Assembly: GCA_001898405.1 (NCBI GenBank)
Contig: MKTW01000018.1
Location: 182,432 to 214,431, forward strand
DNA length: 32,000 bases
Direction of reading: 5' to 3'
DNA from: Sphingobacteriales bacterium 44-61
Lineage (GTDB): Bacteria > Bacteroidota > Bacteroidia > Chitinophagales > Chitinophagaceae
The notes beneath the pieces were generated by a model. The model saw only the letters and a list, made by a program, of their open reading frames with translations. It was not told the origin of the DNA and ran no database searches. Every line of letters begins with the position of its first letter. Within the stretch, counting starts at the first letter, position 1. Below, piece by piece: positions 24,005 through 27,136 of the stretch. The position numbers and the translations under genes were made by a program.

Positions 24005-27000
24005 CTATTTTGCTTTGTTTGTCATTACATCATTTTCTCCAACAGGGCGTAATGTAAATGTATATTCATAATCCTTATAAGGCAGCTGATATTCCGCATG
24101 AGGCCTTGCTCCCCAGGCATTATCTCCAGCTACACCAGATTGTCCATAATCAATATTCCACCAGATCAGGTCTTCGTTGCTCATAGAGCCGCCATGATTG
24201 TTTTGTGCCGCATACCGGTCAAATTCCAACCTGTTCATATTAAAGTGAAGTACGCCACTGCTGATAAGCGATTGGCCAATGGCCATCAGCCCTACACCGG
24301 TCCGGTTTGTAAGGCCTATCCAACGCACATCTGTTCTGTAGCCGCTTTCCTGTGCACGTGCATAGGGATGAAACAATGAATCTGCGGGCATTGCATACAC
24401 GTCTACACGAGCCGCATATTTCCGGTCGCTATAATTATCAAAAGGGCCACGTCCTAACCAGGTAACTTTATCATAATCTTTGTTTAAGATCATCCGCATA
24501 CCAAACCGGGGTAATTCAGGGTGGTATTTATCTCCGGCGATCATTTTTGCAGATACCTGTACATCTCCATCTGTATTGATGATATATACTACGCGATATT
24601 TTGCATCAACATCCGGAAAATAATGTTGTGTGGTAATACGCCACTGCTGCGGGCTTTGTTGCTCGGTCACAAATGAATCGAGGTGAGCATTATCCAACAC
24701 ATTTTCCCATACTGCACAACGCATCTGCTGACTATTGCCGATATCGTTATCAGTAGCTGCACGCCAGAAATGCGGCTGCAATGCCTGCTGCATCAGCTCC
24801 ATTCCATTTAATTGATAGCCGTGAAGCCAACCATCTTTTTTACTGAAACTAATATTGAAATTATCACTGCTGAACGAAGCCGACTCATTGGTTTCGTTCA
24901 TTTTTAACGCGTTGAAATTAGTGTTCCGTGCAGGTTGGGCAGTTTTATAATAAGGCAGTTGGAATTGCTCGGCTGCTACGCAGTACCCTGCCGGCAATAA
25001 TGGCTGGGCAGATCTTAAATCTGCCTCGATATCCAGGAAATATTCCGTTCGCGGCTGTATATCAAAGGATGGAATATCAATTTTATAATTTCCTGAAGTA
25101 CCGGGTTGTAAATCCACAGGGTCCAATTTTCCTTTAGCCACCACCTTTCCATCAGCCTTTACTGTCCAGAAAAAATCGAATTGATTCAAGTTAGTAAAAT
25201 CGTACCTGTTGGTGATCTTTATTAACCCTGCACTAAAATCTACGGGTTGAAAATGTATATACTGATATACTTTTTTTAATTCAAATGCCTGTGGATGCGG
25301 CGTATGATCTGCGGCAAATAGTCCGTCGGCACAAAAGCTCGTATCGCTGGTGGCGCCGACATTACCCATATCACGGCCATAACCCCAGATAGCGCGTCCG
25401 TTGTTGTCTTTAATCTTAAATGTCTGGTCAGCAAAATCCCAGATAAAACCTCCCTGCAGTTGATCATACTTATATATCAGATCCCAGTAGTCTTTGAGAT
25501 CGCCGCCGCTGTTACCCATCATATGGGCATATTCACACTGTATATAAGGTCTGTCACGCCATTGTTTTACATATTCCACCATTACACTCAATGAACGATA
25601 CATGGGTGCTACAATATCTGAATAAGGGGTGCGTTGTGCCGGTTCATATTGTACAGGGCGTGTATTATCCTTTGACTTTAAATATTGATAAGTAGTGATG
25701 AAGTTCTCTCCAAATTCACTTTCATTCCCTAACGACCAGGTAATAATGCTGCAAAAATTCTTATCCCTTTCAAACATGCGTTCTGTGCGATGCAGATAGG
25801 CATTTTTCCATTCCGGCTTATCAGATAATGTTTTTATAGGTGACATACTCATGCCGTCACATTCAATGTTGGCTTCGTCAACCAGGTAAATACCATAGAG
25901 ATTGCACAATTTATACCATGCCTCATTATTGGGATAATGACTGGTCCTCACGGCATTGATATTAAACTGCTTCATGACCCTGATCTCTTCCACCATCTGT
26001 TCTTGTGTAATGACCTTGGCCGTGTACATATTATGTTCATGCCTGTTTACGCCTTTGATTTTGATGGCTTTGCCATTTACAAGAAACAATCCATGCTTTA
26101 TTTCTGCTGTCCTGAACCCTGTTTTGTGGACGATCGATTCAATTATTTTCCCTTTATTATCCAACTGTGTAATGTAGAGTGAATACAGGTTAGGAGTTTC
26201 CGCACTCCATTTTCTTACTGAAGGAATGGTGCTGCCAAATTGAAAATCTTTTTTATTGAGAGGTACTTGCTGACTGTAAATTGTTTTTCCCGAGGCATCA
26301 TCCACTAGTTTTATGCGTAGGGATTGCCCGGCAGAAGCGGCCGGTCCGTGGTTCATAGAAACATGAAGGTCCAGTAACCCGTTTTTATAATCATCATCCA
26401 GACCAGCTTTTACAAAGAAATCTTCGATAGCGATTTTGGGGCGGGCTATCAGTTCAATGTCTCTTTCAATACCACTCAGTTTCCACATATCCTGACCTTC
26501 CAGGTAAGTGCCATCGCTAAAGCGGAATACCTGCAAGGCTACGGAGTTCTTACCAGGAATAATATAAGGTGTGATATCGAATTCTGAAGGTGTTTTGCTG
26601 TCTTTGCTGAGACCGACATATTTCCCATTGATCCATAAGTAGAAGAACGAATTGACGGCGCCTAAACGGATGAAAACATTTTTCTCCTTCCAGTCCCGTG
26701 GCAAATCGAATGCTCTCTTATAGGAACCTACAGGATTAAAATCTTTTGGAACAAAGGGCGGATTCACCGGGATGGGATACTCCACATCTGTAAAAATATA
26801 GCTGTCCTTACCTTCTGTTTGCCAGTTGGCCGGAACTTTTATTTTTTCCCAGGCGCTTACATCATAGTTCGTTTCATAAAAATTCAACGGACGTTCGGCT
26901 GGTGTTTTCACTATTTTAAATAACCAAAGGCCATTTAATGAGCGAACAAATGGAGAAGCACTTTCTTTTATCGCCGCGTCTTCTGTTGCATAAGGTACGA

Positions 27001-27136
27001 AGTAAGCATGTGGCGCTACAGTATTTTGCGATTGGATGGAAGGGTTTTCCCAATCATTAACTGCCGTTTGTGCCATAGCGTACGTACCTGTAAGCAATAC
27101 AAAGCCAGCTATGGCAATAGTTTTTTTTATTGTCAT
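24005..27136 (-). CDS. Glycoside hydrolase family 2 beta-galactosidase (LacZ-like), secreted
   Basis: 1043 aa with a signal peptide ([10 protein letters not shown]). Near-collinear with E. coli LacZ catalytic blocks: [15 protein letters not shown] (acid/base Glu), [17 protein letters not shown] (nucleophile Glu), [15 protein letters not shown]. Confidence 0.95.

Follow-up and report, generated by a model that had tools for sequence, protein, structure and literature searches.

Collagen is the most abundant protein of animals, and glucosyl-galactosyl-hydroxylysine (Glc-Gal-Hyl) and galactosyl-hydroxylysine (Gal-Hyl) are its hallmark modifications. Gal-Hyl passes into the urine, where it is used as a marker of collagen turnover. 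Which enzyme takes the galactose off hydroxylysine is the question raised by a locus of Sphingobacteriales bacterium 44-61 (Chitinophagaceae), in which the gene of a LacZ-type beta-galactosidase of glycoside hydrolase family 2 (GH2) lies between SusC/SusD genes and genes of putative hydroxylysine catabolism. The window analysed is the whole stretch of 32,000 nucleotides from contig MKTW01000018.1 (assembly GCA_001898405.1, positions 182,432 to 214,431), and positions in it are counted from its first letter. To our knowledge ordinary beta-galactosidases have not been reported to cleave Gal-Hyl, and we know of no EC entry for a galactosyl-hydroxylysine beta-galactosidase.

The initial annotation of the window had described the GH2 enzyme as complete and secreted with both catalytic Glu blocks intact, as encoded between a SusD gene and a GH63-like gene, and as co-packed with hydroxylysine catabolic genes. 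It had proposed that this context makes the enzyme a candidate for cleaving Gal-Hyl, an activity that it held to be assigned to no gene. The open reading frame (ORF), the predicted signal peptide and the catalytic residues E472 and E535 agree with the first of these points. The SusD gene upstream (27289-28818), the GH63 gene downstream (22020-24005) and the kinase/lyase fusion, HGLS and aldehyde dehydrogenase (ALDH) genes downstream on the same strand agree with the others. In the literature searched, no paper was found in which Gal-Hyl hydrolysis is tied to a gene or hydroxylysine to a SusC/D locus. A review of 2024 on the glycosylation of collagen lists the glucosidase PGGHG as the only collagen glycosidase and never mentions a galactosidase. 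The proposed activity, as a candidate, is supported by the conserved neighbourhood, by the displacement of the GH2 gene by a GH42 gene at some loci and by an aspartate signature in the active site. Judged from these sequence data, galactosyl-beta-1-O-(5-hydroxy)lysine, either as the free compound or within a short collagen peptide, is the most likely natural substrate, and we put the probability of this at roughly two in three.

A bacterial Gal-Hyl enzyme would account for a step, so far an orphan, by which soil and freshwater Bacteroidota recycle animal necromass. Collagen O-glycans could be mapped or removed with it, and it might serve in an enzymatic Gal-Hyl assay. It would also exemplify the retuning of the much-studied LacZ scaffold for a cationic amino-acid aglycone.

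The GH2 enzyme and its orthologues

The gene and the features that define its product are as follows.

24005..27136, minus strand: LacZ-type GH2 beta-galactosidase, candidate galactosyl-hydroxylysine beta-galactosidase (ORF of 1043 amino acids (aa); Pfam, NCBIfam and PDB matches)
27071..27136, minus strand: signal peptide, residues 1-22, cleavage predicted after AMA (...YAMA/Q)
25721..25723, minus strand: codon of the general acid/base E472 (E. coli E461), invariant in every group aligned
25532..25534, minus strand: codon of the catalytic nucleophile E535 (E. coli E537), invariant in every group aligned

The ORF is complete from its ATG start, and all five Pfam domains of LacZ score above their cutoffs (Glyco_hydro_2_N, Glyco_hydro_2, Glyco_hydro_2_C at 5.4e-92, LacZ_4 and Bgal_small_N), together spanning residues 65-1029. 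A PDB search gave full-length LacZ-type matches, the best being 6SD0 at 1.6e-234, with further matches to 3BGA (2.7e-195), 3DEC (1.1e-191) and E. coli LacZ (about 1e-174). E472, which sits in WSLGNES, and E535 both lie in conserved motifs and are invariant over 101 aligned sequences. An N-terminal signal peptide was found in every member of the window's clade that was examined. The predicted product is a retaining beta-galactosidase that works in the periplasm and belongs to the LacZ branch of GH2.

Database names are generic for the 120 closest proteins, being beta-galactosidase, GH2 TIM-barrel or DUF4981. The best NCBIfam model, NF052611 (Bga2A), was passed narrowly with 1005.7 bits against a cutoff of 999, and with a score so near the threshold it is only a family-level label for the window GH2. 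Bifidobacterium Bga2A, the founding member of that model, differs from the window GH2 in having no hydroxylysine context, and papers mentioning it deal with gut bacteria that use human-milk oligosaccharides and related sugars.

GH2 similarity was the sole criterion by which the 80 closest relatives were picked out of about 186,000 species genomes, and their flanks of 10 kb were scored with the neighbour proteins of the window. A maximum-likelihood tree of 101 LacZ-type sequences was made with E. coli LacZ as outgroup. The aligned groups were the clade of the window (73 sequences), sister lineages (10) and generic Bacteroidota LacZ-type enzymes (17), the last drawn from an even 400-genome sample of the phylum and useful as an outgroup but not for prevalence.

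The window protein falls within the 73-member clade (51-93% identity, SH-aLRT 100), whose genomes belong to Chitinophagaceae, Pedobacter, Saprospiraceae and Flavobacteriales and show several gene orders. The initial annotation had named orthologues residing mainly in pectin, galactan or lactose loci as the finding that would speak against its proposal; what was found is a kinase/lyase gene beside GH2 in 72/73 clade members, the exception being a 7.7-kb contig that ends after GH63. Down to about 51% GH2 identity the kinase/lyase gene lies just downstream at nearly every locus, and early contig ends account for the exceptions. A GH63 gene stands between GH2 and kinase/lyase at most clade loci, and none is nearby at about 18. 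The sister lineages, at 36-45% identity, also have GH63, kinase/lyase or lysine-related neighbours, and all 83 locus-associated GH2 enzymes form one group on the tree (support 91). The 17 generic enzymes fall outside this group, and none of them has such neighbours.

Besides the window's own enzyme, no GH2 above 45% identity and no clade member was found in the even 400-genome phylum sample, and clustering of a library at 50% identity reduces the entire clade to a single representative. The clade is a discrete orthologue group rather than a part of the general LacZ population. The generic Bacteroidota enzymes, which include 3BGA and 3DEC of Bacteroides thetaiotaomicron, are exported full-length homologues from the same phylum, and the genomic paralogues sampled are 39-42% identical to the window GH2.

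The active-site signature

The alignment was mapped onto E. coli LacZ numbering, and the clade differs from the generic enzymes at three positions in particular.

26786..26788, minus strand: codon of D117, which replaces Asn102 of E. coli LacZ, an acceptor/aglycone-site residue (from the alignment)
25856..25858, minus strand: codon of D427, which replaces His418, a Mg2+ ligand (local motif EANIEC-D-GM)
25325..25327, minus strand: codon of D604, which replaces Asn604 at the monovalent-cation site near galactose O6 (from the alignment)
Position Asn102: clade D 73/73; sister lineages D 10/10; generic enzymes N 17/17
Position His418: clade D 73/73; sister lineages H 10/10; generic enzymes H 17/17
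Position Asn604: clade D 73/73; sister lineages N 10/10; generic enzymes N 15, D 2

Since the flanking motifs align without gaps, the substitutions are not alignment artefacts. They hold in larger samples as well. Among 121 cluster representatives from a collection of 5.8 billion proteins, Asp was found at 102 in 120 (one Glu), at 418 in 120 (one Glu) and at 604 in all 121. The 150 nearest 50%-identity representatives from a library of 1.84 billion proteins comprised 110 with N-H-N and 18 with D-H-N, and D-D-D occurred only in the clade's own representative; His418 is kept in 144 and N604 in 133 of them. In addition, Thr104 is replaced by Glu (Glu119 of the window protein) in the clade members inspected. 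An unbiased scan of the 1043 columns gave 12 that are diagnostic of the clade, and seven of these (100, 102, 204, 418, 570, 600 and 604) are at, or no more than three residues from, canonical active-site positions.

The galactose side of the pocket is conserved. With its five-domain architecture and about 35% identity over 971 aligned residues, the window GH2 keeps E461, E537 and E416 of E. coli LacZ and all of the -1 subsite residues D201, H357, H391, N460, M502, Y503, H540, W568, F601 and W999, exceptions within the clade being Tyr for F601 in 9/73 and Leu for W999 in 1/73. It differs from E. coli LacZ by N102D, H418D, N604D, T104E, Y100F, the deletion of the K517 region and E797 to Q, as well as in being exported where LacZ is cytoplasmic and in having its gene among SusC/D and amino-acid catabolic genes rather than in a lac operon. 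The residues Asn102, His418, Lys517, Ser796, Glu797 and Trp999 are said to form the glucose-acceptor (aglycone) site of LacZ, as reportedly described by Wheatley et al. in 2013, and only S796 and W999 of this allolactose acceptor set are retained, with a gap at K517. By these differences the window GH2 lacks the acceptor set linked to allolactose and has an all-carboxylate Mg2+ triad. According to the passages of PMC10696112 that deal with these residues, His418 of E. coli LacZ is a Mg2+ ligand, substitutions of Asn102 and His418 change substrate binding, and Lys517Ala likewise indicates a role in substrate binding.

The canonical Mg2+ set Glu416/His418/Glu461 is not kept, His418 being Asp (Asp427 of the window protein) throughout the clade, and the all-carboxylate site could still bind metal. 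Of the residues Asp201, Phe601 (carbonyl) and Asn604, which we take to be the monovalent-cation site of LacZ, the first two are kept (the first as D216), and the Asp in the third position could still be a ligand.

In Gal-Hyl the sugar is attached at C5 and the epsilon-ammonium at the adjacent carbon, at a distance of two bonds from the glycosidic oxygen. A site designed to bind this group and to offset its charge would be given additional carboxylates on its aglycone side. From homology to E. coli LacZ we infer that Asp117, Asp427 and Asp604, together with Glu119, would make the aglycone side of the pocket negative and hold the epsilon- and possibly the alpha-ammonium. The initial annotation had asked whether the +1 subsite can take a cationic aglycone, and at the level of sequence N102D, H418D, N604D and T104E suggest that it can. 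We predict a LacZ-type enzyme in which the aglycone and metal site has been remodelled and the specificity is new. A stricter version, in which the clade is specific for its aglycone, a carboxylate cluster made by H418D, N102D, T104E and N604D binding the ammonium groups of the substrate, which might partly replace the metal beside the acid/base Glu, so that the enzyme is good on Gal-Hyl and poor on lactose, is put forward tentatively and is rather doubtful in this full form. If true, it would provide the first gene for an orphan activity, with the D-D-D motif as its sequence marker. With its three-residue motif, a bacterial Gal-Hyl enzyme would let hundreds of proteins labelled only 'beta-galactosidase' or 'DUF4981' be annotated correctly.

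The locus, the proposed pathway and its variants

The genes and sites around the GH2 gene, in the order of transcription, are these.

28878..32000, minus strand: SusC/RagA-type TonB-dependent outer-membrane transporter (TIGR04056 5.5e-246; Pfam Plug, TonB beta-barrel and CarboxypepD_reg); the ORF begins at the window edge
27289..28818, minus strand: SusD-family surface lipoprotein (Pfam SusD_RagB 1.4e-31, SusD-like_3; N-terminus ...LWSC)
27137..27288, minus strand: susD-GH2 spacer of 152 nucleotides (nt), with a long perfect hairpin and no clear T-run behind it
22020..24005, minus strand: exported GH63/YgjK-like enzyme with signal peptide, candidate alpha-1,2-glucosidase taking Glc off Glc-Gal-Hyl (Pfam MGH1-like_GH 7.4e-70, YgjK_N)
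19707..22016, minus strand: cytoplasmic fusion of an APH-type kinase and a phospho-lyase of class-III aminotransferase fold (Pfam APH, Aminotran_3; NCBIfam PRK06148)
18813..19700, minus strand: HGLS/DUF1338 protein of the 2-oxoadipate dioxygenase/decarboxylase family (Pfam PF07063 2.6e-64)
17267..18796, minus strand: ALDH7-type 2-aminoadipate semialdehyde (piperideine-6-carboxylate) dehydrogenase (NCBIfam pip_6_carb_DH 831.8 bits, equivalog cutoff 730)
17212..17235, minus strand: terminator-like hairpin closing the SusC-to-ALDH unit (10-bp stem with 7 GC pairs, T-run)
16066..17121, minus strand: AraC-family regulator, hydrophobic in its N-terminal half, that may control the locus (Pfam HTH_18, HTH_AraC)

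The run SusC, SusD, GH2, GH63, kinase/lyase, HGLS and ALDH is on one strand and tightly packed, with genes 2-8 nt apart and the 152-nt spacer between SusD and GH2, and the GTG start of GH63 overlaps the GH2 stop codon at base 24005. As in Sus-like loci, a SusC/SusD pair lies directly upstream of the exported GH2 and GH63 enzymes and is co-oriented with them. Signal peptides were found on GH2 and GH63 and not on the kinase/lyase or HGLS proteins. The hairpin at 17212..17235, found only after the ALDH gene, is the strongest minus-strand terminator-like site in 16000-32000. Of the dedicated sensors or regulators expected at a Sus-like locus (HTCS, SusR or ECF/anti-sigma), the window offers only the AraC-type gene past this terminator, and apart from the nearest relatives, L001 and L030, no locus keeps it there. 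The hairpin in the susD-GH2 spacer could act as an attenuator or as an RNA-processing site setting the ratio of transporter to enzyme. The ALDH gene likely starts with the ATG at 18796 rather than the TTG at 18955. A second ALDH7-type gene (G000, contig C2:210373-211944) is 72% identical to the copy in the locus and is probably the housekeeping copy for lysine catabolism.

The GH63 protein has its best PDB match in YgjK (1e-99), which has been crystallised with Glc-alpha1,2-Gal, the disaccharide of collagen (PDB 3W7W). The vertebrate enzyme PGGHG (GH65, EC 3.2.1.107) acts on Glc-alpha1,2-Gal-beta-Hyl and illustrates that enzymes can be specific for a hydroxylysine-linked sugar, but it belongs to an unrelated family and removes glucose, not galactose, so that its counterpart here would be the GH63 and not the GH2 enzyme. 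The kinase/lyase fusion is a candidate hydroxylysine kinase plus 5-phosphohydroxylysine phospho-lyase, a substrate assigned from context.

In the pathway proposed, collagen-derived Glc-alpha1,2-Gal-beta-Hyl units or short glycopeptides would be imported through SusC/SusD, and in the periplasm the exported GH63 would remove the glucose and GH2 would take the galactose off hydroxylysine; we infer this order of action of the two enzymes. Free hydroxylysine would cross the inner membrane by some carrier, none having been found in the window, and the cytoplasmic fusion would phosphorylate it and then eliminate the phosphate to give 2-aminoadipate semialdehyde. This expected product of phosphohydroxylysine is the substrate of the ALDH encoded downstream of GH2, which would oxidise it to 2-aminoadipate, and the HglS-like enzyme would act further down. 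The onward route would pass through 2-oxoadipate and 2-hydroxyglutarate, with a YdiJ-like oxidase in loci of the L111 type.

In loci of this type the beta-galactosidase is exchanged. At L111:7320-9452 and in L144-L150 a GH42 beta-galactosidase (Pfam 3.4e-115) is encoded between GH63 and kinase/lyase, and it has a signal peptide of lipoprotein type, although GH42 enzymes are usually cytoplasmic. The order GH63-GH42-kinase/lyase was found in 8/8 species with the GH42 orthologue (79-100% identity), and the loci variably add SusC/D, ALDH7, an HglS-like gene and a gene for a YdiJ-like FAD/Fe-S oxidase. GH42 paralogues of 53% identity or less have neither GH63 nor kinase/lyase neighbours. The orthologue occurs in 8/151 sampled genomes of one genus, of a family other than the window's, and no GH42 of that identity level was found in the other sampled genera of the same family. 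That a GH42 of a family unrelated to GH2, likewise exported and in the same position, independently displaces GH2 shows that the module requires an exported beta-galactosidase whichever family provides it, and the two are likely functional analogues. The YdiJ-like protein of L111 (12123-15071; 982 aa, an FAD-linked oxidase with 4Fe-4S part) is a candidate D-2-hydroxyglutarate dehydrogenase. Its gene follows kinase/lyase in 4/8 of the GH42-type loci (L111, L144, L145 and L149) and would supply a step absent from the locus of the window.

Other parts of the module vary too. GH31 takes the place of GH63 at L031 and L062, so that the GH63 slot is filled by a family that includes alpha-glucosidases. 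In Tannerella forsythia ATCC 43037 (L076:13451-14077) and at L124:11499-12101 a gene for a lysine exporter of the LysO family adjoins SusC/SusD-GH2, and no kinase/lyase was found in the flanks of these two loci, which suggests that there the sugar is harvested and the (hydroxy)lysine handled by transport only. Beside a sister-lineage GH2 and GH63 at L125:11430-13675, and also at L126, a PLP decarboxylase of Orn/DAP/Arg type replaces kinase/lyase; L125 has a stand-alone APH kinase of 333 aa as well, and at L080:8752-9948 a decarboxylase of this type is accompanied by an M12 protease secreted by the type IX secretion system (T9SS). These decarboxylase loci may represent an alternative hydroxylysine route, e.g. 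by decarboxylation. At L018:5287-7675 an M24 Xaa-Pro aminopeptidase gene and an ornithine-cyclodeaminase/mu-crystallin gene lie between GH2 and kinase/lyase, and ORFs of matching length were found in L077 for both and in L026 for the peptidase only. Collagen peptides are rich in proline, for which Xaa-Pro peptidases are suited. Other clade loci carry sialidase, fucosidase or GH123 genes. Taken together, the GH42 and GH31 swaps and the lysine, peptidase and animal-glycan genes indicate, whatever the annotation of the fusion, that the aglycone resembles lysine and comes from animal material of collagen type.

A psychosine-type alternative, raised by a weak ceramidase-like match in L029 that is below the Pfam cutoff, was set aside as unsupported. 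At L117, L118 and L122 (genomes G199, G391 and G295; family f5 and the neighbouring f12) one frame of about 1010-1020 aa holds both kinase and lyase, plus an additional region in the middle. Beside this fusion lies a GH2 gene, in a gene order unlike that of the window; its product is a lipoprotein-type enzyme of only 36-37% identity in which N102D is present and H418 and N604 are unchanged.

Weighing the substrate

Several observations weigh against Gal-Hyl as the substrate. Among PDB entries the lyase half matches human ethanolamine-phosphate phospho-lyase best (6TOR, 2e-145), so that the closest solved lyase uses phosphoethanolamine, and no structure named AGXT2L2, the paralogous phosphohydroxylysine lyase, was among the 60 best PDB matches listed for this half. 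ALDH7 and HGLS accompany the module only in a minority of loci, and the locus of the window encodes neither an inner-membrane hydroxylysine carrier nor a peptidase. N102D arises once on the tree, and with a single origin its link with the gene context is one evolutionary event and not repeated convergence. The enzyme is also the sole LacZ-type GH2 of its genome and could double as a general beta-galactosidase.

This last point leads to the possibility, which we consider unlikely, of a broad-specificity periplasmic beta-galactosidase for which Gal-Hyl is one substrate among many and in which the Asp changes reflect metal preference or lineage drift. E. coli LacZ tolerates many aglycones, the generic LacZ-type model is passed here if only marginally, and Asp is found at 604 in 11/150 and at 102 in 26/150 of the other representatives. 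H418D is on the other hand almost unique to the clade, the diagnostic changes are concentrated in the active site, an identity gap separates the clade from the generic paralogues, and the linkage to kinase/lyase holds across several orders and gene orders, all of which speak against this reading.

It is quite improbable that a different bond is cleaved, either by release of the whole Glc-alpha1,2-Gal from hydroxylysine with later splitting by GH63, or in some other cationic or animal-glycan beta-galactoside that arrives with collagen fragments. E. coli YgjK is indeed known to bind the free disaccharide, and the sialidase, fucosidase, GH123 or GH92 genes at some loci suggest mixed animal glycans, but retaining LacZ-type catalysis normally needs a free 2-OH on galactose, and the residues that hold galactose in the -1 subsite of LacZ are all conserved. 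The roughly 18 clade loci where no GH63 is nearby could also be read in favour of another bond; the simpler explanation is that they use Gal-Hyl directly, itself abundant in collagen. GH63 and GH31 are moreover both exported alongside GH2.

An amino-alcohol glycoside unrelated to collagen, with the kinase/lyase acting on ethanolamine or a different amino alcohol, would fit the solved lyase homologue and the absence of ALDH7 and HGLS from most flanks, but it is very improbable given that the window ALDH passes the equivalog cutoff for piperideine-6-carboxylate dehydrogenase, that HglS-like, YdiJ-like, LysO, Orn/Lys-type decarboxylase, OCD (ornithine cyclodeaminase) and Xaa-Pro peptidase genes recur around the module, and that the pair of alpha-glucosidase and beta-galactosidase matches the collagen disaccharide.

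The converse linkage is weaker. The idea that kinase/lyase always needs a glycosidase was dropped, as a beta-galactosidase gene is adjacent to only 5/13 kinase/lyase loci examined in the phylum sample. The GH2 clade depends on the hydroxylysine genes and not the reverse, an asymmetry to be expected if the enzyme is an accessory one that feeds an amino-acid pathway of wider occurrence.

At L112 (G287:C45:196000-215900), in the same family, a kinase/lyase fusion of 63% identity adjoins a GSDH-like gene with no glycosidase nearby, which indicates that the fusion exists as a stand-alone unit too; a TonB-dependent receptor gene lies about 1.6 kb from it on the other strand. Elsewhere in the window, an ORF of 436 aa without a Pfam match (11444-12754) lies between AHSA1-like and beta-lactamase-family genes and is unrelated to the locus.

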